64,000 nucleotides of DNA. It comes from Pocillopora damicornis. Lineage: Eukaryota. Positions 2,954 to 61,398 of the stretch are shown here, one piece after another (positions within the stretch are counted from its first letter, which is position 1; each line of letters starts with the position of its first letter). The translations under genes were made by a program, and so were the position numbers. Below the pieces are notes generated by a model. That model saw only the letters and a list, made by a program, of their open reading frames with translations. It ran no database searches and was not told where the DNA came from. The stretch lies in NCBI RefSeq assembly GCF_003704095.1, contig NW_020846346.1:1-64000 (forward strand). Reading direction: 5' to 3'.

Positions 2954-3270
2954 ATGTCAGAAACTGCAAAAACTGACGAGAGCAGTTCAAAGAACATTTA
3001 TGGTGACCCACCAAAGATTAATATTAGTCTTCCAGAGATAAATGAACTAACCCAGAATTCTAAACCCTCGAAGGATGTTCAACTCCCAATTGACATTCTG
3101 TTGTTAACAGTGAAAGACTGTGAGTTCTTAAGCTGTTACTATTACATTGCTGGTCCATTCAGAAGCTATTTTAAAGGGATTGGTCATGTATACTTTGGGA
3201 GCATTGGTGGAGACCAGGATGTTAAACTGAAAGTTGCTTTGATGAAATGCTCAGAGGGTTCTAAAGTTCC
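2954..3270 (+). CDS. PNP_UDP_1 / MTA-SAH nucleosidase-like domain protein, copy A, N-terminal part (cut by gap)
   Basis: Acceptor ttttcag ends at 2940. An in-frame TGA precedes the ATG at 2954. Translation contains LPIDILLLTVKDCEFLSCY...VYFGSIG...KVALMKCSEGS, a close paralogue of the 4733-4040 exon. Runs into the gap at 3271. Confidence 0.8.
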
Positions 3271-3370
3271 NNNNNNNNNNNNNNNNNNNNNNNNNNNNNN
3301 NNNNNNNNNNNNNNNNNNNNNNNNNNNNNNNNNNNNNNNNNNNNNNNNNNNNNNNNNNNNNNNNNNNNNN

Positions 3371-4733
3371 AAGCTGCTGTTACACTTGCAAATGTTTGCC
3401 AGTTTTCGTTTGCTTCAGTTCCATCTGCATACCCTGAAATACCCCTGATAACGACCCATTCCATTTTCAGATCACGTGCTGCGCTGAAAACTCCTGAGAC
3501 AAAAAAAAACAAGCTTTTAAGAATAAAACAACAAATTTTCTCCAACATCTACTGATTTTAACCATTGTTATCATGTTACCATTGTTATCAAAAATTTGTA
3601 AGGAACTAGAGATATATTTTGGAAAGTTATGTATACTAAATACCAAGCTAGTCCCTGTAGCACGAGCTTCTCCCAAGGCTCATACCATTCAGACACTAAG
3701 ACTGTACCCTTACTCCCTCCACATGTATATGAAATAGTGGACAGTTCATCAGTAGCCATCTATACTCCTGGGTGTAGAGACACACTGTGAGAGTAAAGCC
3801 TCCCAGCCAAGACTACAACACAATCCCATTAGCCCAGGGCTTAAACCCAGACCTCTTGATCTGAAGTCCAGTATGTTCACACACAGCCAGTGCATCTCTC
3901 GACACTGGCAGAAAAGTTTACCCAACACAACTGATATCATATAGGTATCAATTCTCTCTCCCTAGATTCAAATATACCCAAATATCTCTTTGAGCAGATT
4001 TTAAAGTAACAGTTACTTAAAAGGAAAAGGAGACCTTACCCTCTCCTTCTGTCTCAATTGCAATTGCTTCAGGAAATGACTTCACTAGTTCATCTCGTCG
4101 CCACTCAGCTTGTACGAGCTCTGAACCACTCAAAACCTCACCACAGTGGACTTCAACCTTCCTTTCTTTAGGATTTTCTAGGGGTGGATTCCAACCATGA
4201 CCTGCACATTCGATGAGTTCAGCGATGTCTCTGCTTACAGGAGTTATGAACCCACGAAATTTCTTGCCATCCTTTGCAACCTTCTGATAGGAATAAGTTG
4301 TGAGCTTTTTTGATACAACCACATCCCCCAGCTTTGTTGATTCCTGATTCATGCCACTACAGTGGCCTACAGAAAAGACAGCTTTTGGCCTCAGCTGAGT
4401 GACAGCATTTTTTACAACGATCAAAGCACCACCAGGAACGTTAGAACCCTCTGAGCATTTCATCAAAGCAACTTTCAGTTTGACATCTTTATCTTCACCA
4501 ATGCTGCCAAAGTATACTAAACCAAGCCCTTTCAGATAGCTTTTGGTTAGATCATTAATGTAATAGTAGCAACTTAAAAACTCAACGTCTTTCACTGTTA
4601 ACAACAGAATGTCAATTGGGAGTTGAACCTCCCTCCAACGTTTTTTCGACTGGGTAAGCTCACTTAACTTTGGAAGATTAACACTGATCTTTGGTGGATC
4701 ACCATGAGTGTTCCTGCGAGTGCTTGCTTCCAT
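3371..4733 (-). CDS. PNP_UDP_1 / MTA-SAH nucleosidase-like domain protein, copy B (exons 4733-4040 and 3493-3371; probably continues in 6945-7051 and 8028-8308)
   Basis: Family motifs LLLTVKDVE, LRPKAVFSVGHCSG, KLGDVVVS, HCGEVLSG, AIAIETEGEG and WVVIRGISGYADG. GT-AG phase-1 intron 4039-3494. ATG at 4733 with an upstream in-frame stop. Confidence 0.88.
3745..3890 (-). mobile_element. tRNA-derived SINE fragment in the PNP intron (related pieces at about 22630-22715, 43610-43800, 56620-56850)
   Basis: Minus strand reads tggctgtgtgtgaacatactggacttcagatcaagaggtctgggtttaagccctgg (degenerate A/B box tRNA head) followed by ttgtgttg..cttgg..tttactctcacagtg. Confidence 0.6.
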
Positions 4734-6944: not shown

Positions 6945-7051
6945 TGAAGCAAACGAAAACTGGCAAACATTTGCAAGTGTAACAGCAGCTTCTTTTGTTG
7001 TCAGCATTCTAAACCAATGCAATGACTTTGAAGATTGGCCACATTACCAAG
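6945..7051 (+). CDS. 3' part of the PNP-domain C-terminal exon
   Basis: EANENWQTFASVTAASFVVSILNQCNDFEDWPHYQ-G|gtgaac (phase-1 donor). The first 47 nt are the exact reverse complement of 3371-3417. Confidence 0.8.
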
Positions 7052-7491: not shown

Positions 7492-8027
7492 AGATATAAA
7501 TAGTGGGACATCAAATCTGTTTACCTGGCGATGACAATTTTTCTGCCTGGCAGAAGAAAAGGAACAAGAAATCTTCTGTTCGCATATGTGGACGTGCATA
7601 TTTCGTGTAAAATGATGCACAATAGGGACGCATAATGCAATGGCACGAATTGTCCTTGAAACAAACTCCTCAGGAGACGTTTCATTAGGAAAGGAAAAAG
7701 CTCCATTGCTACAATGAATCTGTTGGCTAAAAAGATCTGGTCTAATGATTTGTTTATATTTGTTATCATGCAGATGGTCGAAATAAAGAATCGTCTCCGC
7801 GTGACGCTTTAACTCCAAAGAAAGGAAAAACTCGTTTAACAGGTAAAATAAGGACATATCTATAAGCGTGCCCGTTAACCCCCACCTCCCAACCCCATCT
7901 TCCCGCCCCCTGCCTTTGTAAAATAAAAGTGAGGGGATCCAGCAAAAGGGAAAAAAAATAGTTGCCATACGTACTACTCGCTATCTCCTCATCTTAATGC
8001 TTTTCTGTGATGTCTTTATGCTTTTAG

Positions 8028-8308
8028 TCGAGCAAGGAGTTCCCAGTGACGAAGATTTAGAGTGGCTTTCGCACCAACTCGAAAATTGGGAGGAACTCGG
8101 GCGTCGTCTCGAAATTGAGGAAGCAACTTTAACGGCGTTTGACGATGACTATAAGAAAAAGCGTAAAAAAATCTACAAAATGTTACTACATTGGAAACAG
8201 AAGGATGGCTCAGCTGCAACATACAAGGTCTTACATGATGCATTGTGTCATGAATTTGTTAAGCGCACAGATTTAGCTGAGAAACTTTGCTGTCAACAGC
8301 ATGAATGA
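8028..8308 (+). CDS. Death domain terminal exon (phase 1), likely C-terminus of a PNP-DD protein
   Basis: cttttag acceptor. (V)EQGVPSDEDLEWLSHQLENWEELGRRLEIEEATL...KIYKMLLHWKQKDGSAATYKVLHDALCH...RTDLAEK* has the classic DD pattern W..LGR.L / ML..W / AT...L..AL. Confidence 0.88.
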
Positions 8309-8888: not shown

Positions 8889-9160
8889 CTATTGACGGCA
8901 AAGTTTCTCAGCTAAATCTGCGCGATTAACAAACTGATGACACAGTGCATCATGTAGGACCATGTATGTTGCATCTGAGCCATCCTTCTGTTTCCAATGT
9001 TGTAACATTTTGTAGATTTTTTTACGCTTTCTCCCATAGTCATCGTCAAACGCCGTTAATGTTGCCTGCTCAATTTTGAGATGACGCCCGAGTTCCTCCC
9101 AATTTTCGAGTTGGTGCGAAAGCCACTCTAATTCTTCGTCACTGGGAACTCCTTGCTTGA
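8889..9160 (-). CDS. Death domain terminal exon, paralogue (stop 3 codons early)
   Basis: Same acceptor and phase as the other DD exons. KQGVPSDEELEWLSHQLENWEELGRHLKI...RADLAEKLCRQ*, with CAG>TAG relative to the QQHE* end of the other copies. Confidence 0.75.
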
Positions 9161-9374: not shown

Positions 9375-9767
9375 GTTGCTCAGCTAAAACTGTGTCATTA
9401 GCCAATGGGTGACACAGTGCATCATGTAGGACCGTGTATGTTGCAGCTGAGCCATTCCTCTCTCTCCAATCTCTCTCTCCGATGTAGTAACATTTTGAAA
9501 ATTTTTTCAGAGTATTCCACATTTTTATCGTCAAACGCCGTTAATCTTGCTTCCTCAATTTTGAGAAGATGCCCGAATGTCTTCCATTTTTCGAGTCGGT
9601 GCGAAAGCCACTCTAAATCGTCTTCACTAGGAACTTGGCTCCTATTTTTAAATAACGGGCAACACTCACTTATCTTTGGAAGATTAATATTGATATTTAG
9701 TGGATTACCTCGAATGTCTCTGAAAGTGCTTGCTGCCATTCTAACTTATAACAATGCCAATCCGCTT
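9375..9767 (-). pseudogene. Chimeric exon: N-terminal ~25 codons of the PNP exon fused to a frameshifted death domain
   Basis: Acceptor and MAASTFRDIRGNPLNININLPKISE are homologous to the start of PNP copy B. They run directly into SQVPSEDDLEWLSHRLEKW. A 13-nt duplication near 9458-9483 shifts the frame, and the DD resumes as WRERNGSAATYTVLHDALCH. Confidence 0.75.
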
Positions 9768-33040: not shown

Positions 33041-35117
33041 ATTAACCGAAAACAATTTTGCTGAAACAAATACCTCTTCCGAAGCGAAAAACTCTCCGGA
33101 GCGGAATATCAGCCTCTGGTCCAAAGATTTAAAATCATATCTTCCCCCCCCCCCCCCTCTCTCTCTCTCTCCCTTTTTTTTTTTTTTTTTTTTTTTTAAC
33201 TACTTAAGATGAATTCTTGAATTCTTGATTACATTGCTTGACAACCGTGCTTCTGCATGTTCACGTCGGAATGCTGAAGTTCATCTCCTCGCCTTCAAAG
33301 TGCAGCCTGTTGAATTCAAATTTGAAGGTACTTGCGAAACTCTGATACCAAAAGAATACCACGTGAAAATAAAGAAAGAGAGACTCAAGGATTTTGGGTC
33401 AAAGTAACAGCAAATTAACATCATCATGCAGAAGAGTTACGCAATAGAACTACTATCCTCCCCAATCTTCTCGCGGTTACATTATGGACGGTGACTACGT
33501 TGGAAGAAGGAGTTTATCAGAAGGCTTTTAAAAACGCGGAGATACGAAAGTTTCAGTTTCCAGAGTTTAGTACGGAAAAAATCCAGCTTTAAAAGAAGGT
33601 TAGTGGATAATATATTGTGATGAAGGTCGTTTTGAGGTCATATCCGACATACGGCGCTGTTTGAACGAAAATATCCTCTGTTTGGGTGCGATAATTTATG
33701 AATTGAGTAATGGTTACGAAGTGTTTCTGTTTCCTATCATATATTTTCAGTTCTGGCATCCAAGTCCATGCTTCACAAAGTCACTTGAAGTAATAAACTA
33801 GTAAGAAAGCGTCCAAACATTATCAAAATCGATTATCAGTCGCTTGCAATTCGATTGCCATGTCGAACTGACAGAATAACACCCAGCTTTAGCTTTTCGA
33901 TGAGCGAGAGCGAAGCATCTTGGTCATGGAAAGTTGTTGTTTTAATTCGTTGCTTTAGCCTTGAAGAGTCGGTTTAAATCCATGACATTTAAATCAGAAG
34001 TTCTACTGCTGTTGTTTGCTAAACTTTCATTGTTTTAAATGATGCAAGGTTCACGAATTTCCATTAAAGCCGGAAGTGAAGCGGAAGTTAGGAACTGAAC
34101 AAAAACACTTTCTCTTTTGAATGTTGGCGCGTGTGACAAATAACTTCCTTTTTGTCACCCAATCTATGTAATTATACACGCACGAGATGCAAATTCCAAC
34201 TCTCTGTGACCATGAATGCTTATAAAAAGTCGGCGTAGAAAAATTCGTTGAAATACACAAAAATTTTCAAGCGAATCCTGCATAAAATCAGGAGCCATTA
34301 CTAAGTAAGGGGCTCCTGCGTGAAATACATTCAACCAAAAGGGAATCTGAAATTAGTTCATTCACGTTAGCTACGATGTACTTGAAGGACAAATCATTAT
34401 CAAATCATATATTGGTTATTTTTGGGGGGGCCGCATTTTGCACACATGAATTGGTAGAACAGTTTCAAGCAGGAATTGATCATTCGTCGGGCTTGTTATT
34501 GAACCATTTCAACCAGTGTCACCATACAAACTTTCAAATGTTTAAGCATTTGGTTCTTTTCACTATTTTATTTCATTAAAGGTGAGTTGTCCGTCAGTAT
34601 TTTTGTTCCTATTGTTCATCATTTGCATGTATTTTCGGCGGTAACGGCTGCCAAAATACATTTATCCATTTCATAATTGTGGTGACTTTTGGTAGAGGGG
34701 TGGTGGGGTGGGGCTTAGGGGTTAGCAAGAGATTATTAATTCTTGGGGGTTAGCTAGTTAAGCTTTTGTTTACATTGCTATCGATTCAGCCTGATTTCTG
34801 TTTTGATATGAAATATTTAAGTTTGTGGACGCGGCCTAATTGGTCGATAGATGTGATTAGATGTGAGTGTTTAAAAACGGCTGTAACGTTTTAGATGTGA
34901 GCGTCAGTCAGTAAAATATTTTTTTAGAGCAATAGAGAGCCTTCCTCAAAAATTATGCAAACGTGGGACGGATTCGAGGGTTTGTGTAGCTGTCTCGAAA
35001 GCTCTCGACTACCTAAAGTTTAGATGAGATTACGTAAACAAGGAGAAAGTCCTAATCCGTGGTTTACACGTGAAATTGTGTAGGGATTCTAATCAGAGAC
35101 AGGGCTCCGGGAATACC

Positions 35118-38100
35118 ATGGCGGCCATTCCATTGTGCATACCAAACAACTGCAGCTGGGATGAAACATCGGGAGCGTTCCAGCGCGACTCGAGTCAGCC
35201 CCGCACGGGACTTCAGCCTGTAAACCCGGCACTGCGGAAACTTCGGTCCATTGGCGGACCAGTGTGCGTCGTGTCGATAGCCGGGCCATGCAGGAGGGGA
35301 AAATCGTACATCCTCAGCAGAGCGTTCGATCAAGGGGACGTGTTCCCACTGGGGCATTCGTTTGATCCGGAGACCATGGGAATTTGGCTGTGGGTAGTAC
35401 CAGAGAAATACAGGGATGCTCAAGGCAGAGAGTTCACCGTTGTGCTGTTGGATTCCGAAGGAATTGATGCAGTGAGTGCAGAGGGTATTAATGATCACGC
35501 CATATTTACACTCAGCGTTCTCTTGAGCTCTGTATTAATTTACAATTCTGTTGGCGTTCCCACAAGAACTGATCTTGAGGGACTTGAGTATCCTTTTCGA
35601 CTCTACTACGTATTGATCTGCAGCTGAGTGTGCTCTTGTTATCTCTTGTATGTGTCTATCTATCTTTCAATTATATCTATCACTCGATGCCTACGTTCAA
35701 TTAAAGCATGTGCAATCTCGAAAAGTTACATTTAGCTTTCTCTTGTAGTCTTTCATGATCATATGCATTGGTTATTCGTGATGAACATCTTCCACAAAAT
35801 GGTGCAAGTTATAAAATGAAAGGAAATTAAATGTTTAGATGCCTCAACGAGTGCTAGTCACATAATCAAGATTTCTCAGCGGATTCAAGTGGTCTCAGGA
35901 CAACCTTTAGACAAAGAAGATTCACAGCACGTGTTTCCTTCTTTTGTGTGGCTGCTCAGAGATGTTGTGTTAAGTCTTCCCAAGGGCGTGGAAAACTTAA
36001 AAGCGTATTTCCTTGAAAAGGTAACCGTACCACAAAAGTTCAGAACTTGCCGTTGGTGAATGGAACGGAACTGTATTAGTCCGAACTGGTAGAAACAGTT
36101 ATGGCCAAATTTGTTCTGGGGAGGGAATTTTGAGTGCTGCATGCTGCAGGCAATGTTGCAAATAATTTCAAAACCCCTTTAAATTTTAGACTTGCGTTCA
36201 GGCGCTTGACTGTTCACAGGACTGTTCATCTTCTTGTGGAGCGCTTTTCATCTCAACCGGTACTTACAATCAATTTTTTAGGCTTTCACTTGCTCAGACG
36301 GGAGTTATAGCTTTTCTCACAAAACTTTCAAAACTGTGCGTTTTGCTGGACAACAGTACTCTTTCAAGAAAGGGATAGAAAGGATCCTAACAACAAGTTT
36401 TCAAAGAAGGTTCTCGATTTGACGTTAGCGTGTTCCTGAACTTTCATGTTCTTCATGTTTTCTGACGTTTAGGTCTTCAAGATGCGAGGTCGGCCTAATG
36501 AAAAGTCTCAAAAGGTCGTGGACAACATTCTGAAGTTCTTTCCTGACTTTGACGCCTTTCCCCTCTCCCCTCCGTCATCAGATGCTACACTCATACAAAA
36601 CTTAAATGAGAAGGGGAGGCAGGGGGAGATTAGTTCATCATTCAAGAAAGGAGTGGAAGAGTTCAAAAAGATGTTGCACTCAAAACTAACTCCCAAACGG
36701 AGTTTTGTTGGACAAGGATTTGTCACTGGAGAAGGTTGGCAATTTTTCTAAAGTTTTTAGAGACAGTCTAACGCTCTAGTAATAACTTTTTTCAAGAAAA
36801 AAAATTAATTTGTCGCGGGGTGCAAGGAATCAAGGAAATATGAAGAAGGGATTCTTGTCATACACGTAAACCAAATGACAGGCACTCTCTTTTTTTAATT
36901 TATTATTTTCATTCAACACTGATTTTCTTTAATTTGTCCCCTTGTTAGTTTTAACAGCTTCCCTTCTTCCTTCATGAAGTAGACACTAAAACCTTCAAAA
37001 ATACACGATTAAAGTATGTATGCATTATACATTAATAAGATACGTGTTTGGATTAAATGAAACGCGGTCGTGGAGATGTCAAAATTCAAACGCCCTTTTG
37101 TGATAGAAGGTCAATTTTCAAGGATTAGAGTAAGATGACTGCCTGAATTTTGAGCCAGATGAGTTGTTTTATAACCATTTACCCGCTTGTGTCTTATTCA
37201 CAGCTCTGGCAACTCTGGTCGAAGAATATATTCAAGCTGCAAATTCACCAGGGGCTGTTCCAGTTGTTGAGAGTGCATGGAACGTGTTTACCAAAACAAA
37301 ATGTACTCAGACTCTAAACGATGCTAAAGCTCTGTACGAGTAAGTACTACTAAAAGACTTGCCTAAATAAACCGGAATTTCTATACGCGCGCAACTCTGC
37401 TTCCATAATGACTCCGTTTCCGAAGCGGCGATCTTTTAGTCAGCACCACAAGTGTTGTAAGGTTGACCTTGAGCCTATTTCATTTGGGTTTGCGCAGAAA
37501 CTCATTTCCGTTGGCGTTTTTATTTTGTTGTTGTTATTTGCTATCCCAAGTGATCAGATCTCAGAAAAGATGGTTTTCTTCTACACTCGGAGAATCGCTT
37601 GATCAGAGCAAAAGAATTGCAGCTCTGTAACAGAAAACTATAGATACTTGCTGACTCGAAATATGCAGAAACACTGATGGAATTTATTTCTGCTGAGTCT
37701 GTTGATTACAGCTCAGGGAATAAGATCTGAGATCATAGTCGATTCCTTTCGGCAGTATTTCAAATTTTTTAATTTCTTGATTCAGTGGAGGGATACGAGA
37801 ATTCAAAGAAAAGGTGTGTCTTCCCTGTGACGACAGAAAGATTCGCAATGCTCATCAAGATTATTTGTTGGAAGCTCTAACTTTTTTTGAGACTGAAGCA
37901 GAGGACACGGCTGTAATGGCCCGGTGGATGTACATCGAGGAGTTAGCGGTAAATAATGAGTTCGATGTAGATATTTAGATTCATTAAGCTGATCTTTAAC
38001 CAACAAAGAGTAACTATATTTAGCTTGTTTATAGCTGTACGTTTGCTTATACCACATTTTCATAACTTAAATAAAAACAACAATAATAACAACATCGATG

Positions 38101-40948
38101 GACAGACGGCTATAGCAGTGCTGCCTGACGAGAAGCTTTCGCCTATATTCTCCATTGACAGCTAAAAGAGAAACTACAGATTCCTGCCAGCTGTCATAAC
38201 CTATTCATTATAATTTTCGCGCGATTCTATTGGCTACTAAACATCACGTCGTATCAGCTCCTACCCTTCATCAAATTGTGATTGAAATTGGCTTTGATCA
38301 TTCTTATCCTTTTAGTAAAACAAACTTGATAAGATTTCTATTACAGGACAAAGTCGAGGAAAGTGTAATCAAGAATACTTGAGTCATCCTACTTGCTATT
38401 CCTGTGGTTCTGTATGGTCATTTATTTTTTCACGCTTGTTAATTGCTCACTCTATATTCCAACATTAATCTTATCTTAAGATCATTCAAATTCTTTGTTC
38501 TTCATTTTTACCCTTTTGAGGGAATTAAGGATGGTGAACTCATGGTGCACTTGCCGCTCTCACCCATGTAGCCCGGTGTGCGATTCCTGATTCTGCTGGC
38601 ATATGTAGGAAGAGTTTGTTATTGGTTTCCTTCCTTTCTTTGAGGGTCGTGTTCTTCCTTCCACGCAAAAAATCACTCCGATCTCCTTTGCTGCCAGTGG
38701 ATTAACCCTTTAACTCTCAAGATCTCATTAACAATTCTCCTTACTGTCTGTCATATAAATCTTGTGATGTTAGTTTGAATCATTAGGTATTGGATCAGCT
38801 AATAATCCCTTATGGTCACTCATGGGAGTTAAAGGGTTAAGAAACACTCTGTAAATGTGCCACCGCTGAATTGAATTATTTCTATATCACTAGAACTATA
38901 CAGACGAAGCTGAGAGTGCTTTGCTAAGAGAGAACAACAATCTGACTGAGGAACAGTGCAGTGACCTGATGAAAACGCTACGCGTGGTGTGGTTGGACCC
39001 AGTCCTCAAAGATGTCCATGATCCCAATGATCACGAATTCTTGATTTTGGAAGAGCGTTTGAGGTCTGTTTATCAGAAACTTGACAGCGACTTCAAGCAA
39101 CAGGCCAAAGGAGACAAGAGCTTATGTTCAAACCTGGCTTACATCTATGAATTGGTATGGATAGTTTTTTTTTGTTCAGGGTACAATGAACTTCCTGTTT
39201 CATTCTCTTCCCTCCAACTCCTTCACCTGATTATTACCGCGGTTTATGGAAAGGTTTGGTTTGCTTCCTGCATACACATATTGCCCAAAACAACAAGTTA
39301 GAAAATAAATGACATACCACAGTCTACAACCATTTACTTTTTACCATCACTTAAAGTAATATTCAGTTTGCAGTTTTAATCATAATTCTCGGTCGCGAAA
39401 CATAATTTTTTTTTCTAGTTTAACGGACGTTGATGAAACGTTTTAGGAATGAGAAAAGGTAACGCGGGAGGCGTTGCATAATCTGTGTCTGTATCTGAGC
39501 AACTGCACCTACCCCTTCCCTAACCCAAAAACAGTCAACTGATGACAAGTAAGGGTTGATGTTGTTTTAGTGAAGGAGTTGGTGCGCAGTTTCTCAGATA
39601 CTGACATTGATCTGTGTTTCATTACACTGACAGCAACATTTTGAAGAGATGAAGAAACATCTTGCTCGACTTAGGACAAGGAGGAAGTATTATGAAGATA
39701 TCTCCTCCGAGAGAGCAGCGAGAGAAGCTGAGGCTGAGGAGACAGAAAGGCTAAGGGTCAGTTTTTTTCATATTTGAGAGCCTAGATTACCAAGCTAGAT
39801 ACCTTTCAGGCAGGAGGAAGAATGATACTCTTTGAACATTGGTTATTTATATGCGTCATTCGCTAAGTTTGTTTAGATTAGTGGTTGTTAATATTTGAAA
39901 TGGAGGTGACTATTGGATTAATGTTTACCGAACCGCAAGCTAAGGAAAAATGTTCATTAGCACATGATAGCAAACAAGTACGATTGCTGATATCACGAAG
40001 CTCGCTGAGTGTAGATATTAATTATAATAATGGTTATGATGCTGCTTTTCTTTCGATATGGCTACCTGGAGTGGTAAAGTTTCGACAAACAATACTGCTG
40101 CTATTTTATTATTGTATTTTACCCTGATGATCAACAAAAAAATGTTTTTTCGCTCGAAGAACAAGATTTGAATATAAACGAGTTTGGGTTTCTGGATACT
40201 TCCTTTATCTTAATTCAATATAGTTGATAACTTTCCTGTAGCAGTAAAATACATTTTCACGTATTTCATTGTTACTTAACTTTTTTCTTTTATTTATTTT
40301 TTCACTTTCATCCTTTTTTTTTTAGGATGAGAACTTGCATTTGGTAGAGAACAGAAAAGAAATCGAAGGAAAGGTAAGAGCTTTAGATAAAACTCTATCA
40401 ACTTTTTCAATTAAATTTTTTATGATGTGTTTGTAACAAAGTTGAGAGGAATCAAAATTTTTTTTAATTTCGAGTACGAGTCAGTCGCCCATATCTTAGC
40501 AGAATTAACTATCCTTCATTTATCTGAGAGGAGATTTTGAAAGGTACATTTGGCATTTGCAGTAGAGTCTTGCTACGTCGACTATTTTATAGTCAGCAAT
40601 GCATAATAAAGTTAAGGTAATAAATAGGAAGGTTCTCGTTTCCACTCTGTGCTTCGGAGGTGAAAACTTAAACAAAAACTTAATTTAATCTTTTCCACTT
40701 TTATTTCACGACATTCGTTTTACAAGGTGCTGTCTGGTTAAAAGGTAACCTATACTAAGTATCTTTAGCGTAAGTCGTGTTTTGAATTGATAACAAAATA
40801 CAAACCCAAAGTCTTTGTATCTCAGATAACTCGCCTAGAGGAGAAACACATCGAAGATCAAAGAAACATCAAACGCATGGTTGAAGAACAAATGCGAACA
40901 CAGAAAGAGCAGGCCGAAGCTGCCATATCCGAAGCGAGGGAAAGATCG
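35118..40948 (+). CDS. GBP: Guanylate-binding protein (GBP/atlastin family); exons 35118-35587, 35858-36020, 36473-36734, 37204-37339, 37786-37948, 38894-39154, 39634-39756, 40326-40373, 40826-gap
   Basis: G1 AGPCRRGKS, ETMGIWLW, G3 LLDSEG, LSSVLIYNS, G4 FPSFVWLLRD, GAVPVVESAW and a helical/coiled-coil C-terminus. Nine exons splice in frame. Confidence 0.93.
35588..35857 (+). other. U12-type (minor spliceosome) GT-AG intron in GBP
   Basis: 5' site GTATCCTTT. Branch-point-like GCCTCAAC at 35841-35848, about 9 nt before the AG. No polypyrimidine tract. Splicing restores the frame (GLD-HIIKISQRI). Confidence 0.85.
38706..38836 (+). mobile_element. TTAA-flanked piggyBac-type MITE, internally deleted copy in a GBP intron
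   Basis: ttaa-CCCTTTAACTCTCA...TGGGAGTTAAAGGG-ttaa. Confidence 0.8.
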
Positions 40949-41463: not shown

Positions 41464-44400
41464 TCAAATATTTTGCGTTTCTAGAGCGCTGGGAAGTAGG
41501 AGGCCCTCAGACATAGCCAGGTCCTCTTCCTTCTGCTTTTCTCCCTCGTCACGTTTGTGGAGATCGTGGAATCCCTTATAAGTTCGACGCAACCTTCGCC
41601 AAAGAGCTGCACATAGTGTGTTTGGTGCCTAATGAGTGTAAAGAAAAAGTTAAACTTATGTTCCTGCATTAACAATGACTCAAGTGTTCTTTACAGAACT
41701 TCTGGAATGCCAAGCCCCTCTCCACTCCTAAAGGGTTTGATGATATCTGAGCCTGATATAATTATCAGAAGAGGAAAGACAGATCTCATGCACCGATATT
41801 GCAAACAAACCTTCGCTGCATGTAGGTTATCGAACTCAAATAACGAATGACGCAAAGGGAGTCGAAAAAAAGGCTGGAGGGGGTGCACCATTAAGGTGTG
41901 ACGTAACTGATGGGAGACGTAAAAATAATCTTGCAGCGAACAACGAAGAAAAAGGCTTATTATTAGTTTATAACGTAATGTGAACTGTTAAGAGCGCAAA
42001 GTAAACGATATAGCAGATTTTTTATAACCGTGATATTATATTCGAGAACTGAAACCAATCAGTACCCACCTCGCCATCTTTAGACTGGGTGTCTTTGTAA
42101 GACGCATAAATCAGTTCCATGGACAGGACAATCAACCCAGCAGCCACGCCCACTACAAGGGTGATGAACACCCCAGCCAAATCACTAAACTGAAGCTGGT
42201 CACCGCCCTCCTCAGCAGCTTCCTGGGCTGCCTGTGTCTCTGCACCGCACACGCTGCGGCTTTTAAACCATTTCTCTTTCATGCGCTGTAAGAAGCCATC
42301 TTGTTGCAACTCCAACATGGCTACACTAAAGTTATGAGTGTAAAGTGAATTGCGAGGGAGAGCGAAGCCATAGTTGATACTACCAAATGGTCTGTGGAAG
42401 ATGGATCAAAATAGATTTAATAGAGACAATTCTTAGATTAAATAGAAGGAGGGGGAAGGGGGGAACGGGAATACTCAGAATTGATCCACTTGCGCATGCC
42501 CTATATTAGACGTCTGTGTTTGCGTACTGATTGGAAAGCGCCATGACACAACCATGTTCAACCTAAGAAATTTCCATATTTACCTTTCGATAAGAGTCAG
42601 TGTGTTACACGGTTCTTGTTGCACGTCATATTCAAGTACTGCCGAGTCCCAAATGAAGGCATAATTTTCCGTGTTTCGCACTTTTTCAATCCCAGCTGTA
42701 TGATTCTTTTCCAGTGTTCCATGACGCTCGATGAAATCCCATAGTTTCTCGTAGACTGGGAGCTTAGCCTCTCTAGGAAAAGGAAATAAGGCAATGTTGG
42801 TTTATTTAGTTCACTGGCATCTGAGAAAAAGAGAGAGTCTCCCCTACGCAAAACTTTTTTAGTTCTTGCTAATCGTTGCTAGGCGATTAGCTTCTCATTT
42901 TATGATGCTTTGCGAGCAACGAGCTGGGTTTAAGCATGATTGGAATCTTTTAGAGGAATTGGAAAGGCANNNNNNNNNNNNNNNNNNNNNNNNNNNNNNN
43001 NNNNNNNNNNNNNNNNNNNNNNNNNNNNNNNNNNNNNNNNNNNNNNNNNNNNNNNNNNNNNNNNNNNNNGCCCTATCTTACCAAGCTAATGTAGTCGCTC
43101 TACCAGATTGAGAAATCGGGTGCAGGTTATCTGGAGTCTGCTCTAGATAAGAGGCAACCGCTGCCCAGAATGAATGAAATAACGAGAGGGTATTCTTCGC
43201 AAGCGCTTCCTCGCTGCTGACTTCCGCTGATTGTACCACCTTGCCATAGTAGCCATACGGGCTCAGTCGGTCATAGATCCAAACCACAGTTCCTATGATC
43301 ACTGATGAGCTGATGATGGCAATCCACAAAGTCTTCTCAAAAGGATCTAAAAATCCCCAGGTATTCACCTTGTTTTCCATGTCTGTTTTCTTCATAACTA
43401 TCTTGAATCCCAGACTGTAGTAAGGTTGTGTAAAGTCCACCGCTTTTTCGCGTTCAGGGCTGATGATTATAGTGGACACGGCCAGTTGAGCTTTCTGTGG
43501 AGAGTAAATGGTCAGTTGGTAAAGAGACATCGCAGAATTTTCACCATTAAAGCAACATAGAAGCTTTATATAGGGTACGTAGATGTGTACAATTTGCACT
43601 CTTCAGCCAAGAGGCCCATCCAGCTGGAACTTATCCCAGTTTGTGTAACGTAGCGAATATGTCTTGCTCTCACCCCCTGGATGGGATGCAGTTCATAACA
43701 CGTTACCTCTCCCACCCCTCCTCCCCTAGCATTCTTTCAGGACTGACTCCTTGAAAGTGCACTAGTTCCTATTTACACTCCCGGATGTAGAGCGGCACTA
43801 TGACGGTGATCCGCGACATCATTTATGATCTTGTATTAAACTGACGCACGGCAAAATGGAATATTTTAGTTATTTAGAAAAGCGTTGTATTTGAGTAGTT
43901 TCCTGAAAGCTTGCTGAGGTCGGTAAATGCATCGCCGCTATAAACGATTACACACTCTTACACATTTCACCTTTCTTGTCAGCTCCCCAATAATTCCACT
44001 CCAAGTACCATCACTCTGCTGGTCACCAAAGTTATCTCTCAGTTCCAGATGATATTCAAATTGTAATTTCTTCTTCAGCTCGTCTAATAAGTCAATACAG
44101 AATCCCTCGTATTCTACATCTGAATTACTGTTCGTGGAATTTTCTTTTTTCATGACGAACGGCGGACTCTGAAAAGAACATTTAAATTGAATAGCATCAA
44201 CGTTTGTTTTACAGCTCCGTTAAGCCCAGTTTCCATGTAATCGTTATCATCTCTTTCAAAATAATATATATCGTGACGATTTGTACGATTACTTGGATTT
44301 GGGACAATCAGATAGGATCCTCTTCTATCCAGAAGNNNNNNNNNNNNNNNNNNNNNNNNNNNNNNNNNNNNNNNNNNNNNNNNNNNNNNNNNNNNNNNNN

Positions 44401-47400
44401 NNNNNNNNNNNNNNNNNNNNNNNNNNNNNNNNNNNNNNNNNNNNNNNNNNNNNNNNNNNNNNNNNNNNNNNNNNNNNNNNNNNNNNNNNNNNNNNNNNNN
44501 NNNNNNNNNNNNNNNNNNNNNNNNNNNNNNNNNNNNNNNNNNNNNNNNNNNNNNNNNNNNNNNNNNNNNNNNNNNNNNNNNNNNNNNNNNNNNNNNNNNN
44601 NNNNNNNNNNNNNNNNNNNNNNNNNNNNNNNNNNNNNNNNNNNNNTAGGAACTCGAACCGCCGAGGGAGAAGAAAGACGTTTGGAAATATTGAGGAGTCT
44701 GAACTGACTGAAATTAAATTACTGAAAATGTGCGTGAGTGGCTTCAAGTTCTAATTAACGGCAAATAGAGTTGTAAACCAAACTCGAACTAAAAAGGCCA
44801 TAGAATGCTATCAAAAAGGAAACTTGGCTGATTTGAATGCTTTTAAACATACCAGGGCGATTAGCACTTTGATTCTGCTGTATTTTANNNNNNNNNNNNN
44901 NNNNNNNNNNNNNNNNNNNNNNNNNNNNNNNNNNNNNNNNNNNNNNNNNNNNNNNNNNNNNNNNNNNNNNNNNNNNNNNNNNNNNNNCCACGGTTTATCA
45001 GATCTGCACAGTCCATTGCCAACAGGAGGCTGCGAGAGTGATTCGTTCTGAGAAAGAATTCCTTCGATAGCCCTGGCGACAGTTAAAACAGCGTCATAGA
45101 TCCGTCCTGACCGAGCCTGTTGTAAATGAAATAACAGAGGACACATTAAAAAAAAAGTTTGTTTCAAGTCTTCTTCGCAGCCGTGGTTCGAGATATCACG
45201 CATTTAGGCCCTGAAAGATTGTTCTAGTAAAAGTAGCATATTATGCTACTAGCATTGCTCTATTTTTTCCTAATTTACGCTCGTTTTTCAAAATTATGGT
45301 ACTTCTTACGAAGGATGCTTTTCGAAAAAAGGAACAGAAATAAGTCCATACTTAATACTTGTTTTTAATAAAGCATGATTCTTCTTTATTTTGAGTCACA
45401 TGCTTGCTCTAATCAAACACAATTAACTGCTGCACTTAATTCCAATGTACGATGTTAGCACTACGTTTCTTTTGACGTCATTTTATTATTTCAGTAAAAG
45501 CGGGAACTAGGACTGTTTTGCCCAGTCCTCTAGAGGACGAACGACTTCGTATAGTTATTCTGGGAACCTTCTTCCCTCAAGACCTTTCAAAATTGATAAG
45601 AGACTGAAACGTGGAACGAACTCGCAAACAGTAAATCTTAGATACCAAACAAGTCATGACTCTGGTAATGTTCTCTTCAAAAAAATAAAAAAATTAAAAT
45701 ATGCTGATAATGCTTGCAATGCTACTTTTATAAAAAGACCAGACATTATGCGCGTTTTTCCAAATTATGCCAAAGATCTAGATTATGCAAGTGCAATTTA
45801 CAAGGGCCTACATAAAACTAGCTTAAGTGTAGCAAGGTGAACCGGAGACGAGGTAACGTAGACGTTCACTCGCTTCCGTTTCACCTTGACGGGGGAGGGT
45901 ACGGCCACACGTTTGCTGACATGAAACTCCAGTCCAGAGACTCACGTTAAGAAGATCATGAAAAAGTTAAGCATTTTTAAAACTACTGCCTTTAAAGTCG
46001 GAGATGTTCCCAATCTATTTTCCTTCATTGCCCACGCGAGACTGACAAATTTCATCGAACTTTGCATTGCAGCAAGAGATACTCAAAGGTTGAGCGTGTG
46101 CTAATTTATAAAGACATTTGCCGCCAAAGATTTGGCTGCACCAGATAACTGATAGAATGATATAAGATATCGCTCATTATCTGTCGCCCGGGGAATGGGG
46201 GTTTTGAAGATTTTAACGGGGCTACGACAAAATTCATCTGGTCCCCCCCCCCTTCCCCGTGTGAGGTCCTGTAATACTCTAATGATCCTCCTTTATAGTC
46301 TGTTGGCGACAGCTGATCACTCCTCGATCCTCCCTCCCCCCCAGGCGTAATAAATAATGATTGGTCCCCAGACCTACATTGATAGATGACGTTTCATCAA
46401 TTTTGCTCCATTCCTTCGAGACACTATCAAACAGTTGGCCACGACCTCTGACGGGTAAACGCACGCCAATGACTCCCTCTTTGTAAGAAATATCTCTGTT
46501 ATCCTGAAACATATACATCTTAGAGGTTAATTGAGGGTCAGCGGGTAAAATATCTTAAGGGCACAGCTATGAAAAAACAGAGAAAATACAACATGCGTGA
46601 AGTAATGATTCCCCACAATGATCGTTTTGCCACAGCATACTCTGTTCGGCTACCAGAAAAGGCCAGATGGACCCATACTACCCGCCTAAAATTGCAATCT
46701 TTGCAGCTGGCTCACCTACTTACAAGTTTTAGGAGAGAGATCCTTTACAACCGTTTTTACAGCAATGGAATTGTAAAACACTTCTTTGGAGGTTTCCATG
46801 AAAAACCAAGGCCTTAACGAGTTTGGGAACTTATTTGAAGCTCTGTTGTATTATTTTATCTTTTTTTGCGCCCTCATGGACCTTGGCTACGAATGAGTTT
46901 TTAAAAGCTAAGGAAAGGAGCTAGTGCAGTCAACTTCTTCACGTTTGCTCGATGTATAATGCATATCTGTTGTTTTGTAAAATACCAACAAACCAGGCAC
47001 GCAATGGTTGTGCGACCGGATGCTTGGATATGAGTGTTTCTTCGCCCTCGAGAGAGTATGAGGCCTTTAGGCAACGCGAGCCGTTGAGAAGTCTGGAAGG
47101 GGTCTGGAACCGAAATAGTAAAGGGGGCTCCTGTGGGTAGTAGGTGGTTAATTAGGCGTTGTTTTTTCAAACTTAAGGGGTGTGGCCCAATAAAGCTTTC
47201 TGATTGGTCAAATGGGTCACGTGGTACAAAATACTGCTCTGTGACTGGTTACTACCCGTCGGAGCCTCCTTTAGTTCTAACCGATTTACAGACCTCCAGC
47301 AAACCTCTCTCAGATTCATTTCAATTCTATTGCGCGGGCGGAGAAACGCTCGCCTTGCAGCGCTAATAATATGACGAGGGCTTGCTTGTAGGTTATACGA

Positions 47401-50400
47401 ATAATTGTAGCCACTGATCACAGGGATTAAAAGGTACTATCGGTGCATCACAATTGACGCCAAAAAGTTACAAAAGATTCTATTCGCTAACCTGAGAAAT
47501 TGCATTGTCAGTCAAAATCCACACCCATTCTCTGATCATGTCCAATTGTTCCGCTTGTTCCAGTACTTGTGGTACATAATCAGCTTGGCAACTTAACAGT
47601 ATCACGCGTGCGCCCTTCTCCCTCAGATTTAACAGGTTTTTTGTAGCATTTATTTTATAACTACCAGCTGTGACTGTAAAGTGCTCAACTCCCAGTATTT
47701 CCCACTTTTTGGCTGTAGCAAACCCTATGAATTGGCTCAATGCATTCATGTCTGAAATATCAAATTATATGGAATGAACTTTTATATCTTTTATTAACAT
47801 GCAAGCCACCAAGTTTCAATTGATTGGCTGATTGTGGCGTGTGGTGCCGACCAAATTCGCGGAAGACAGGCATGCGTATTGGTAAGTCATTTGTGACAAA
47901 GTTCCAGTTAGATATTGGAGTCCGTGGGCAACCTGTTCAAATTTTTATTTCTAAAGATAAAGAATCTAAATGGACTTAAGAAGTTATATAGAACTAATAT
48001 AAAAAGATGGTGAACTTTGAGCTCCGCAGTCTTGACCCTGCCCTCCCCTCCTACACGTAAGGGAGGATATGTTACATTTCTAGGTTCAAAATTTGCCATA
48101 CTTTCATTATTTTTTAAATTCTTGGTTTCTTGATGGGTGTTAATTCGAAGAATTTTTGGGAGCTTTGACTATCTTCGAGCAATATTACTGAAAGACAAGC
48201 ATTTAGAGTGGACTAGGTATTGACTTGAGGGTGCCAGAGGTGTAATGGCTTTTGCGGCTAACATTTAAAATTTAGGCCATTTTACGGCTAACCGTCAGTT
48301 TCTTTCCGACGTGGTCGACGAAAAAAATATTACGGTTAATCTATTTATAAACTGACGGTCAAAATTTGCCAATTTTTTTTACGCCTGACTGCTGATGGGT
48401 TAACCACATGAAGACCCTCTGGCTATGGATATGGTTGAGTGGTGCCTAACACGCCGTTCATTGTGTTCAAGTGACAACTAAATGGCTTACCATAAAGTGT
48501 GCTTGCTGTTAAGATTCCCATTCTTTTCCACTTGTGGTGTGCAATTAATTCCTTCATCGCAATATTCATTTGTGTATCATCAGGAGACATGCGCAGCAAG
48601 TACCTGTAACGACCACGAGAATTGAAATACAAATCTGGATCCGTGGCACTGGCGCTAATCTGGGGAATTTGCAACTTAGAACATAATGGGTGCGTCGCTT
48701 TCACAGCAACTGAAGTCTTTGGACCAATGATTGCAATCACTCCCTCGTTGATCAGCTGATTGACTAAACAAGGGAAGAAGTGTAAAATTATGAGTTTACA
48801 AGTGACACACAGGTTTTTTTTATTCATTCAAGATCTTGTCTTGAGCTTCAAAAGCGTTGAACTGTTCAAAAACACCGTGATTTACCAGCTTTATTGGTTG
48901 TTAATGACTCCTGTGAGACTACTCGGTTCTAGCGGCCTGAAAGTAAGATGTCGGGCCGGTCATCGTACTGTTTAAGCGTATACACATAAGCAAACGTTTG
49001 ACCGCTATTTTCATAATGTTCAAATAACTTCCTCTGACTTAGCCTGCAGAACCGGCGTTAATTTTTGTGTCTTACAGGCGAACGGAGACAAGTGCTAGGC
49101 GAGTGCGAATTGCAAGTCGCGCGCGAGGGGAGTCCTCCTCCGTTTGACTGAAAAATGCTATTCTGCAGGCTACCTCTGACTTGAACCAAAGCTGTATGGC
49201 GTTAGGAAGGATTCGCAATCACTAGCGCACCGAAACTCTCAGGGGTCGGGAGACAATGCATTCAATTCTTTTCTCTTTTGGGAGACTTTTAAGTTAAAGG
49301 TATGATAAGGCAGATTTTTTTCAGTAACCTTGCTATGGATGATCATGGCATCCACTGACACTAAAAAAAAAGTTAAGATTTTTTTTTGTTCGGAATGCAT
49401 TCAGTTTCATCCATAAAAATTTAAATATGACTTAAAATGGACCACGCGATGAAACACCGCGTTCAACCTTTCACAAACAGCTAGGTAATTTTGTAATTGC
49501 ATTCACACAGTAGGAAAGAAAATTACAAATAGTCCATTTTACAGTTGTGTGCTTGGTTGCCAAGGCTTTGGACAGGCTAAGGTTGACCTTGTTTTGATGA
49601 AAACCTTGCTGCTTTCGAATGCAAATTACTTTGCTATCATGCTAACTTGATACTGGTCTCTATCACAACAAGGTCACCTTCAGCCACACTCTAAATCAAA
49701 GACTTGGCAACTAAGTACACAACTGTAAAGGCCTATTACTGAAGCCAAAGAAGGAGAGAAAAAACAGCATAAATATTGTGCGAAAATAAAGCATTGTAGC
49801 AATTTGAGATAATTTGTTGGCATTCAAAAATTTAATAATCTCTCTGAAGAACACATGTTTCATTCACAATATATTGCTTTTACCATCATGATAGATGAGG
49901 AAAAATTTTGATTGAACAACGTGCCATTTGCCAAAAGCCACGTTTTAAGAAAGTGAAGTTTAAATTGGAGGACGCTTTTTAATATTTAACGATAAAATTA
50001 ACTTTCATTTTGATAAGGTGCACGAGTATTTATTTCAGTTTCTAAAAATGAGGATGTTAATCAATTTTAATTTAACTTTTTCGCGTTTGTGAGGGAAAAA
50101 ATTGTCACTATTTATTATAGATTAGAGTGTGATATGTCACGCTGTTTCAATGAGCACCAAAGAATTGTTTCGCATTGACACATCTAGCCGCATCCATTTC
50201 CTGTAAATTAACGGTTAGCCCTTAAAAAAGGGAAATACCGTTAGAGAAATGAGAAATGTAAAGACTTAACGGTATTTAGGTAACCTCAGACGGTCTTTTT
50301 CTCGTCGAAAGAAGACTTCGGATCTGTTAAAATTTTATGATCTGGGGTGAAGCACTTGAACAGGGTAAACAGGGTTGTTCCAGCTTACCTTTATAAATAT

Positions 50401-59100: not shown

Positions 59101-60937
59101 TTTCACAAATCCCAAACTCGAAATGGGAAATTCAACTCTCTCCTCTTGTGCGTAAAGTTTCAAAGAAATCTCGAGGTTTTCATGAAATGAAAGAAAAAAT
59201 ACAGAAGGCAAATCACCTCTTTGGTTAGTTCATAAATTCACAGATCAAGCTTGCCTTCCTGTAAAGACAAATTTTGGCCTTCATTACCACTCACATAGGA
59301 ACCCCTTGCCACCCTCAACAATATTTTTATTTTTTCTTCAAAATATACTGATATTATAAGGAAAAGTCGTGTTTGGGCACTCTTAATGTAAAAAGGATAA
59401 AAAACTGTATGACACTTGTATTTCAACAATATTTAGTAAAGGAGCAGGCGATAACAACGACGACTAAAGCTTTGTGATAATGTTTACTAATCATGGACAG
59501 GTGTCTGTATCTTGTTAATATTAATAACTTCATGCAAATCGATTCGAAAGTCATTTAAATTTTTGAAATTTTCCATTTAGGAGGAGACCTGTGACTTAAA
59601 CCTGAAACAAATAGATTTTGCTGGTAAAACGAACATTAATGGATTTCCAAAACATAAAATGCCGATAATTAGGTTCCCGTCGAAACCACATTATCTTAAC
59701 TTTATTTGTATGTACACAAACTCATCCAGGTTATCATCTTTGAACAAAAACATGGCGGACAGCTGTTTGACCCTAGTTGATAATCAGGAAATCGAATCAC
59801 TTTCTGAAAGGTTTATGACACCCGAAATTGAGATAACTGCTGTAATTGTAAGGAATTTATCGTCTGTCGAACGAAAAGTCTTATGCGCAGCGATGGAAGT
59901 TGTATCTCAAAGGATGGTAATAAAGCGATAAAGATATCAAACTTACCTGATTTTCGGCCAACTTGATTTTGGGGAATGATCAACTGGCAGGATTTTGCAT
60001 CGTTTGTATTAGGAATTGGGTGAGACAGAATACAAATGCACCGAACAACTTGTCCTACTTTCTCTACTCTCTCGGAGAAGTACGAAGGATCGGCGATAAC
60101 AGCTTTCGTTTTTGCAACCTCTCCTTCCGACTTCACTCCACAGACTACGCCGTTCTCCATGACAATTTCTTCCACTGGTTTATTCAACATGTATGTACCG
60201 CCATAAACTGCCGACAATCTGGCAAACCCTTGAGGCAATTCGCCAAGCCCGTAGAGAGGATACAAATAGGGGCTATGACCGTAGCGAGACAGAGAATCAT
60301 AGTACAGCTTTATGCGCTGTAGAGGCTCCCCACACGGCTTTGTTTTGTAGTCATCATCGAGATACAGAGCGATGGCATGGCCTGTGAAGTCCTGAGTGTT
60401 CTGATCAAGACCGTACTTGGAATAAACATCTTTCATAGTCGAAGTCTTCGGGTCGATGCCTTCCCAAGTAGTTGGGTCTTCTACGTTGTACTTCAGAACA
60501 AAAAGAAGGAACGATCGAAATCGTCGTTTCTCAAAGATTCCCATCAGACTGGAGGAGAGAGCTTCCTTGTCATTCGCAGGAACCTTGTAGACGCTTCCAC
60601 CGCGGAAAACATAGCTTCCTTCAATCTGCTTGAATTCCAAGTAACGCGTTACTTTAGTATGAACCAGCAACTTGACAAGACCACCATCTGCCATCAAAAA
60701 CTTGGGAATCAAGTCGACATTCCAGTCCCGACTATTACCGAAGCTGTCGCCCGGGCCTTCGGATTCTTTAAATCTCTTGAACAACTCATCAAGAGGATGC
60801 ATGGAAGTGCTTTCTCCACCGTAGTAAGAGTTGCGATCCATATGAAGAACCTTTTTCCCGTTTACGGACAACAGACCACTCAAAATACATTCCTTGAGTC
60901 CTGTACCAAGGATAACATAATCGTATTCCTGGTCCAT
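56195..60937 (-). CDS. GDI: Rab GDP dissociation inhibitor; exons 60937-59947, 58421-58222, 56335-56195 (443 aa)
   Basis: [79 protein letters not shown]. Exons of 991+200+141 nt splice in frame. Confidence 0.97.
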
Positions 60938-61398
60938 GATTAGGAAACTATTGGAAAAGAGATCAAAGGGCGATTATTCCGATATTCTAGTAAAATGTTA
61001 AAATGATAAAATGAATGGGTGTTCCACTGGTTGAATAAATAAATTTCACTGTCTCAGGAGATTTTTCATTGGATGAAAGAAAAAGTGACCAATTAGAGAT
61101 CTTGTAAGAAAATATCTCGTTCCTCATTAACCGCTGGATAGTATAAGTTAGGGCTCATCATATATTACTTACTCTTGTGATTGGATAACCCCTCGTCCGA
61201 TTCACCAATCGTAGCTCTTCTGACATGGGCAACACGTTTCAGATGAAATTGACCAACACTGAATTCATAAAAATTGTTCGTTCGACTGAAATCAGACATA
61301 CACGAGAATTGTCCTTAGCCATTACGAGCATTAAAATCAGCTTAAAATCTTTCAGCCGTGAGAAGGATTTGTCTACATCTCATTACGGAATTTACATC
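60938..61398. promoter_or_regulatory. Probable bidirectional promoter between GDI and GFAT with several CCAAT boxes
   Basis: 461 bp separate the divergent ATGs. CCAAT/ATTGG occurs near 60950, 61068, 61089, 61180 and 61205. Confidence 0.65.

Follow-up and report, generated by a model that had tools for sequence, protein, structure and literature searches.

Does the PNP-Death protein encoded near the left end of this window (the whole 64,000-nucleotide stretch analyzed here) still cleave nucleotides, or has its PNP domain been turned to another use? The PNP family, the combination of Death and PNP domains, and coral NLRs carrying PNP domains are already known. The original prediction for this locus was that two catalytic motifs are substituted in an otherwise intact open reading frame, and it proposed surveying the altered D/G column, and calculating dN/dS, among coral paralogues. 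The window is eukaryotic, with 35-40% GC and 13 N-gaps, and the nearest named homologues of the PNP-DD gene among the matches listed in a homologue search were from Pocillopora corals.

The gene encodes a spliced PNP-Death protein of 408 amino acids and is split across two mis-oriented contigs. Both strings on which the prediction was based, AIAIETEGEG and VIRGISGYADG, are present on the minus strand, flanking a 546-nucleotide GT..AG intron. The stretch 6945-6991 repeats 3417-3371 exactly in reverse complement (47 nucleotides), and this is the sole contig-end overlap of at least 15 nucleotides among the contigs of the window; because of it, the gene was continued on the plus strand of the contig at 6945-8309. 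Four exons (4733-4040; 3493-3371 joined to 6992-7051; 7774-7842; 8028-8308) then yield 408 amino acids without an internal stop. The reading frame is therefore intact once joined, whereas the minus-strand PNP frame itself enters a 100-N gap at position 3370.

By sequence and profile, exon A (4040..4733, minus strand) encodes PNP residues 1-231, of Cap17/MTAN-like type, and contains the codons of Glu51 (4583-4581, the MTAN E12 column) and of E227-T228-E229 (4055-4047). Intron 1 (3494..4039, minus strand) separates it from the first part of exon B (3371..3493, minus strand), which encodes R248-G-I-S-G252-Y-A-D255 according to the alignment; Gly252, the residue at the MTAN D197 and Cap17 D472 column, is encoded by GGG at 3434-3432. 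The second part of exon B lies in the oppositely oriented contig (6945..7051, plus strand, including the 47-nucleotide overlap), followed by exon C (7774..7842, plus strand), which encodes a disordered linker, and exon D (8028..8308, plus strand), which encodes the Death domain and the stop codon. The resulting protein consists of PNP (residues 1-292), the linker, and a Death domain (residues 317-408) matching PF00531 with an E value of 2.5e-11.

The gene is transcribed, as spliced RNA contigs are present. The intron 1 joint occurred in contigs from 3 of 4 runs of one RNA set and 4 of 4 runs of a second set, in which two runs are RNA by guess and one is marked as probably DNA. The strand-flipping join (3371>6992) was found in one X6 contig (1 of 4 runs) and the intron 2 joint (7049>7772) in 2 of 4 runs (X1 and X6), and the RNA contigs contained no clean case of the exon C-to-D joint at the 8028 copy. 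The P. verrucosa protein XP_066019811 (P0384) was identical to the joined protein at 395 of 408 residues, including 289 of 292 in the PNP domain and 24 of 24 in the linker. Its Death domain was identical at 90 of 91 residues to the window copy at 19330 and at 82 of 91 to the copy at 8030. This best match to the 19330 copy suggests that Death-domain exons have been exchanged by conversion, or that the assembly mixes copies.

Four Death-domain copies lie in the window (8028-8308, 8889-9160, 9376-9643, and 19330-19608). A 10-codon leader of PNP exon A type is spliced in frame to a Death-domain exon (9739-9709 and 9160-8889, minus strand) across a 548-nucleotide GT..AG intron in contigs of X1 and X3, giving a 100-amino-acid Death-domain-only protein that could possibly act as a decoy by analogy with CARD-only proteins. 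Roc-COR genes (PF08477, PF16095) are located at 29442-19330 (minus strand) and 24339-25682 (plus strand). The automated model P0464 links a COR-like tail, by way of a short piece resembling exon C, to the Death-domain copy at 19608-19330; it adds two further Death-domain copies and looks chimeric. One linker-Death cassette appears to be common to the Roc-COR and PNP genes. Farther along the window, exons at 42022-48827 (minus strand) resemble those of an ionotropic glutamate receptor, and the long reading frame at 59813-60973 (minus strand), which looks like a single exon, is presumably a Rab GDI.

Two further PNP copies flank the argument. The first is a relic (22312..23620, plus strand) with most of exon A deleted and a stop and a frameshift in exon B. 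It reads ATTTCAGGGTATGCAGAT at about 23480-23497 and thus keeps the ISGYADG that had been claimed for it, though its first motif is QSER in the place of ETEG. The relic itself appears to be transcribed: loose ends of X5 and X9 match the exon A remnant joined to a cryptic acceptor that falls within the exon B codons for ISG. The second (2954..3270, plus strand) covers the initial ~105 codons of exon A of a PNP paralogue, cut by an assembly gap, with an N-terminus like that of the NLRs P0001 and P0004. This fragment is covered by RNA contigs, and one X12 contig links it, by a loose end, to an exon lying upstream at ~2177-2206.

The central observation concerns which Asp is missing. A coral PNP profile of 12 proteins aligned to MTAN without gaps over EME...RAISDVAD, and the result was the same with 26 sequences. 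The relevant residues of Escherichia MTAN are E12, E172, M173, E174, R193, S196, D197, and D200; E51, E227, E229, and R248 of the target fall in the E12, E172, E174, and R193 columns, and these four columns together with those of S196 and D200 are conserved. A 505-amino-acid Cap17 homologue (Pfam Cap17-like_N plus PNP), found by family search in 2 of 401 genomes, reads RGISD472FGD475 where the target reads RGISG252YAD255; the Cap17 column was read from this homologue, and KTE188, DtcC, and DDAN were compared by description. By both alignments, Gly252 occupies the column of the general-acid Asp (MTAN D197, Cap17 D472), which bears out the earlier claim that the D of R.ISD has become Gly. The Asp of YADG was considered as the catalytic residue and rejected, as the alignment places Asp255 at the second Asp (D200/D475); it is no stand-in, because active enzymes carry that second Asp as well.

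A sequencing error at Gly252 was also rejected, since turning GGG into an Asp codon takes two substitutions. The contigs of X6, X9, and X14 span exon B without any alternative letter, an X5 contig has two differences, both elsewhere, and the P. verrucosa orthologue has the same Gly. Only one of the two predicted catalytic substitutions held up as such: the Asp-to-Gly change is catalytic, whereas the change from EME to ETE retains both E227 and E229. Nor was the Met-to-Thr change usable as a diagnostic, since Met was present in 12 of 24 Asp-bearing coral-like domains (de-duplicated at 80%) and ETE occurs together with Asp in several coral-like domains.

What removal of this Asp does is known from related enzymes. 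In Cap17 of E. coli KTE188, whose PNP domain spans residues 239-505, Rousset et al. reported that with the D472A mutant infected cells showed no drop in ATP or rise in adenine, and defense was lost (bioRxiv 2023.01.24.525353). E. coli PNP D204A/R217A is described as ~400-fold slower on adenosine (PMC6193948), and by their PDB titles (1z5o, 4oy3, 4p54), MTAN D197N/D198N mutants hold MTA or SAH. The role assigned here to MTAN D197 draws on PDB titles and on the work on Cap17 and PNP. Because the Asp that protonates N7 is gone, cleavage of ATP and dATP is predicted to be orders of magnitude slower, though the pocket may remain able to bind ligand. From this known chemistry, the target probably has little or no ATP nucleosidase activity.

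The fold is that of an enzyme of the family. An AlphaFold2 (AF2) model of P0384 was confident (pLDDT 88.5), and its best solved match was MTAN, with a Z of 28.2 and an rmsd of 2.5 A over 225 residues; the Death domain of the model matched RAIDD (Z 13.9) and FADD (Z 13.3), and the linker had a pLDDT below 50 at residues 296-310. P0384 scored 35.5 bits against the PNP_UDP_1 profile (PF01048; cut-off 25.1). The nearest predicted models were bacterial defense-type PNP fusions (TM 0.83-0.89; Cap17 cluster 0.85), and PADLOC returned PDLC00759 (E 6e-11, with P0187 as proxy) and PDLC04726. Judged by these PADLOC and predicted-structure matches, the PNP domain groups with defense PNPs, not with housekeeping PNPs. 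The same proxy fell below the NCBIfam cut-offs for MTAN (NF004079, 43.6 versus 169 bits; TIGR01704, 27.6 versus 73.8 bits). Since the catalytic Asp is absent, we class the PNP-DD protein neither as a Cap17-like ATP nucleosidase nor as an MTAN; its PNP domain is descended from a Cap17-like immune ATP nucleosidase.

The proposed survey was extended beyond this genome. Of 398 PNP domains collected, 232 were dropped for missing one of four columns or for coverage below 75% (mostly exon-A-only gene calls), leaving 166: 145 coral-like (HMM score at least 200) and 21 distant, some of these rows having no known origin, with 2 of 7 distant rows looked up named as bacteria. Asp was missing in 101 of the 145 coral-like domains and kept in 44, a share of Asp-less domains that is biased upward because the homologue lists (the best 120 of 173, 120 of 1216, and 150 of 10,971) were ranked by likeness to an Asp-less query. 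After de-duplication, Asp was kept in 29 of 71 domains at 90%, 24 of 49 at 80%, and 18 of 36 at 70%. Every distant full domain (21/21) kept both [ED]ME and Asp, as did all four plasmid PNP proteins, of which two are DtcC-like, one is a CBASS SAVED-PNP, and one is unassigned; Asp was also kept in 2 of 2 Cap17 homologues. A GTDB scan for a DtcC-like protein confirmed none, and neither sponge DDAN nor fungal NLRN was recognized among the homologue matches listed. The replacing residues were Ser (30), Arg (22), His (20), Gly (17), Asn (8), Cys (2), Glu (1), and Tyr (1); eight different replacements look like lost constraint rather than one new chemistry. In the present genome, the 7 readable paralogues had Asp in 2, Gly in 4, and Asn in 1. 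By architecture, 71 of 97 NLR domains and 8 of 10 PNP-DD domains lacked Asp (10 of 18 and 5 of 7 after de-duplication). Judged by this single column, at least half of the sampled domains would be unable to cut ATP.

In a quick tree of 66 rows, Asp was the state of the outgroup and of a basal coral branch, and the Asp label needed 10 changes, at least 7 of them forced by well-supported branches. A single origin of all Asp losses was rejected (p-AU 1e-43). The target's ETE/SG clade (support 100) comprises Pocillopora NLRs and a Stylophora protein, and a second Gly clade (support 99) comprises PNP-DD proteins of Pocillopora, Stylophora, and Orbicella. Holding the two Gly clades as one was not rejected (p-AU 0.47), so judging from these sequences the Gly may be as old as the split between them. 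The prediction that the D-to-G change predates the relic duplication thus agrees with the relic's ISGYADG but was too narrow, since the Gly is common to Stylophora and possibly Orbicella. Asp loss recurs across the coral family, and the observation describes a gene family, not one gene. This family pattern was unexpected.

Some members of the set depart further from the enzyme. Six Porites NLRs (P0019, P0021, P0022, P0039, P0042, and P0090) have His in place of Asp and have lost the E174 column too (for example FEIGGEG and FAFGGEG); on these motifs, their PNP domains are the clearest candidate pseudo-enzymes of the set. Five proteins (P0005, P0006, P0008, P0009, and P0010) have two PNP domains each, and P0008 has KD in one and KN in the other at the catalytic column, possibly a built-in active/inactive pair. 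In P0012, P0015, and P0016, PNP is followed by an unnamed C-terminal domain of ~110 amino acids (KGRxIxxxSRGRxHSLxEP) in the place of the Death domain.

The rest of the site was then compared between the two classes. The E174 column was kept in 20 of 25 Asp-less versus 24 of 24 Asp-bearing domains (p=0.05), the E12 column in 20 of 25 versus 23 of 24 (p 0.19), and K/R at the R193 column (target R248) in all 25 Asp-less domains; the second Asp was kept in just 12 of 25 Asp-less coral domains. These counts suggest that the remaining site is slightly relaxed in Asp-less domains. Within the close clade, E51 was present in 102 of 103, E227 in 104 of 105, and E229 in 103 of 105 sequences, with 36% of columns in the close set equally conserved; such near-invariant Glu residues would fit a site that still binds ligand or performs chemistry. 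At E229 (the E174 column) P0384 carries Gln, a rare state, as ETE is present in 14 of the 15 cluster members listed.

On paralogue pairs, dN/dS was below 1 in each case: 0.56 for the target versus the neighboring fragment (p 0.049), which at 2957-3268 ends before the Asp column, 0.56 for L004 versus L005 of the Asp-less clade (p 0.023), and 0.26 for the Asp-bearing L006 versus L008 (p 9e-5). The difference between Asp-less and Asp-bearing was not significant (p 0.063, three pairs only); pairs with L003 (0.33 and 0.37), whose Asp column is unread, were left out of the Asp-bearing class. Nineteen of 40 listed RNA differences were synonymous versus 22-34% expected, with codon 252 untouched; this list mixes alleles and paralogues, and adjacent differences in one codon (e.g., 4122/4123) were scored singly. 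When JGI metagenome contigs were scanned for closely related DNA, 85 pattern matches appeared, of which 0 were confirmed. Taken together, the comparisons indicate a PNP-DD protein that is apparently still maintained, less tightly than the Asp-bearing ones.

A maintained domain that would not cut ATP calls for another role, and the NLRs point to one. Pocillopora NLRs P0001-P0004 have N-terminal PNP domains 81-83% identical to the target, with the same ETEGEG and KGISGYADG, and in P0001 and P0003 an exon-C-like linker exon follows PNP. P. verrucosa P0001-P0003 and P0384 share the same longest contig listed (32,159,411 nucleotides). Because the NLR domains equally lack the Asp, these receptors would need an output other than ATP cleavage, and because they carry the same Asp-less domain as the target, a docking role is favored. 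We therefore prefer, at a probability of roughly 0.4, the reading that the target PNP is an ATP-inactive docking module and that PNP-DD is a MyD88/ASC-like adaptor between NLRs and death-domain partners. Activated PNP-NACHT-LRR receptors would cluster their PNP domains, the clustered domains would recruit PNP-DD through the dimer surface of the family, and the Death domain of PNP-DD would relay the signal onward. MTAN forms dimers. A homodimer prediction for PNP residues 15-298 of P0187 scored 0.00 when run without an alignment, which weighs neither way. Yuen et al. had already placed the sponge DEATH-PNP protein among possible NLR adaptors, since coral NLRs carry PNP (PMC3879445), a proposal that predates the proof of ATP cleavage by the sponge domain.

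Several points count against the adaptor. A search for a close NACHT of the ETE/SG NLRs gave none in the window and a best match of 52% in this assembly; because of this, the proposed receptor is represented here only by the fragment beside the gap. Recent exon shuffling alone can explain the likeness of the NLR and PNP-DD domains. The transcript may end in a Death-domain copy other than the one at 8028. Apart from these points, a Stylophora protein (P0007) fuses an ETE/SG PNP to a GBP C-terminal domain (PF02841), and a guanylate-binding protein gene (35028-39301, plus strand; PF02263, E 3e-27) adjoins the cluster in the window; this pairing hints at local exon shuffling. A broader form of the proposal, which we regard as tentative and rather doubtful, is that stony corals repeatedly disarmed a bacterial-type ATP-destroying immune enzyme to obtain a new homotypic signaling domain, with many coral PNP-NLRs recruiting PNP-Death adaptors or Asp-bearing helper PNPs instead of destroying ATP on their own.

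The same data allow other scenarios. The Asp-less pocket could, in line with the original prediction, be a ligand sensor that binds ATP, ribose-5'-triphosphate, or another nucleotide uncut, with binding or release switching the Death domain. The residues for ribose and water (E51, E227, E229, R248) are kept, Asp-to-Asn MTAN mutants were crystallized with MTA or SAH according to PDB titles, and a sensor is compatible with the adaptor reading. We nevertheless judge it unlikely: a disordered linker between PNP and Death domain is a poor allosteric path unless oligomerization intervenes, the column takes Arg, His, and Tyr in other clades, the orthologue has E229Q, and NLRs already have LRR sensors.

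The strongest chemical rival, which we also hold to be unlikely, is a changed substrate, in which the site cuts nucleosides that are already charged (7-methylguanosine caps or nucleotides, or NAD+/NMN) and need no protonating Asp. There is precedent in E. coli PNP D204A/R217A, reported to be 5-fold more active on m7Guo (PMC6193948; PMC13057136), a nucleoside that needs no protonation. Of 103 close homologues, 102 keep the water-activating E51, and the Gly may be old in the lineage if the two Gly clades are one (p-AU 0.47). However, the precedent is a phosphorolytic hexamer and not a hydrolase of the PNP clade in question, a positively charged substrate would be repelled by the Arg or His that other clades have at the column, the P. 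verrucosa orthologue carries Gln at the E174 column, and such cutting has no known cellular role.

Residual ATP nucleosidase activity, perhaps slower, in which Asp255, water, or a partner subunit would supply the proton, seems quite unlikely. The fold is nearest to bacterial defense PNPs including the Cap17 cluster (TM 0.83-0.89), the sponge DD-PNP protein is reported to be an active ATP nucleosidase (bioRxiv 2023.01.24.525353), and Asp255 is kept in the target. Yet MTAN, Cap17, and DtcC-like proteins also have the second Asp and removing the first disables Cap17, while only 12 of 25 Asp-less coral domains keep the second.

It is improbable that the protein serves, as the original prediction also proposed, as a dominant-negative brake on ATP destruction, whether by pairing its inactive PNP with Asp-bearing paralogues or by soaking up partners through its Death domain. 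Immune PNP domains expressed alone were reported to be toxic (bioRxiv 2023.01.24.525353), the same genome has 2 Asp, 4 Gly, and 1 Asn among 7 paralogues, and a spliced Death-domain-only transcript adjoins the gene; but the Asp-bearing L006 and L008 are only ~47-50% identical to the target, and the NLR domains that are 81-83% identical are equally Asp-less.

A decaying duplicate in a birth-and-death cluster, its Asp lost as unleashed copies are toxic and its PNP now functionless, would suit the relic, the fragment, and the several Death-domain copies in the window, the dN/dS of ~0.56, and one X9 contig with two 1-nucleotide deletions in exon A, but is very improbable given an open frame spliced in several studies, 289 of 292 PNP residues identical in P. 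verrucosa, an ETE/SG clade extending to Stylophora, a Gly-bearing PNP-DD kept from Pocillopora to Orbicella, and the excess of synonymous RNA differences.

If PNP domains of corals are scaffolds, the path from enzyme to adaptor taken by TIR domains has been repeated. TIR domains are NADases in bacteria and became scaffolds in MyD88, so that the animal TIR is an enzyme-derived scaffold; the coral PNP, if the adaptor reading is true, would join TIR as the second immune nucleosidase in animals to have turned into a scaffold. If instead m7G or NAD+ is cut, the domain would represent new immune chemistry. The label "ATP nucleosidase-like" for coral PNP-NLR and PNP-DD proteins rests on likeness to one sponge enzyme, and how a large part of the coral NLR repertoire signals deserves reconsideration. 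Rousset et al. treat coral NLR PNP domains as likely ATP-cleaving, the eukaryotic domains they tested being fungal and sponge only, and sections 5 and 8 of the preprint do not discuss Asp loss (bioRxiv 2023.01.24.525353). A literature search by title and abstract listed no reports of Asp-less PNP domains in corals or NLRs, nor of repeated Asp loss among coral PNP domains.

Compared with known systems, the target resembles Cap17, DtcC, and DDAN in the PF01048 fold, the RGIS motif, and the Glu residues. It differs from Cap17 in having Gly at the D472 column and Thr for Met in EME, and from MTAN in having G252 for D197, T228 for M173, and SGSEL for SGDAF, as well as in its fusion to a Death domain. 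The sponge DDAN shares the Death-plus-PNP architecture, but its order is DD-PNP and that of the target PNP-DD. The coral PNP-NACHT-LRR NLRs (Hamada et al., as cited in PMC4986451 and PMC3879445) end in NACHT-LRR, whereas the target ends in a Death domain. Plant NP-like and bark storage proteins likewise reuse the nucleoside-phosphorylase fold and are described as lacking evidence of a salvage function; in contrast to the target, they are of separate origin, serve nitrogen storage, and have no immune domains (PMC3751785). A parallel in layout exists with MyD88 (DD-TIR) and ASC (PYD-CARD), each of two domains, the first also found on receptors and the second a death fold; the target likewise joins a receptor-type module to a death fold, with no sensor or ATPase domain. 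It is homologous to these adaptors only in the death fold, and the adaptor role is drawn by analogy with them.
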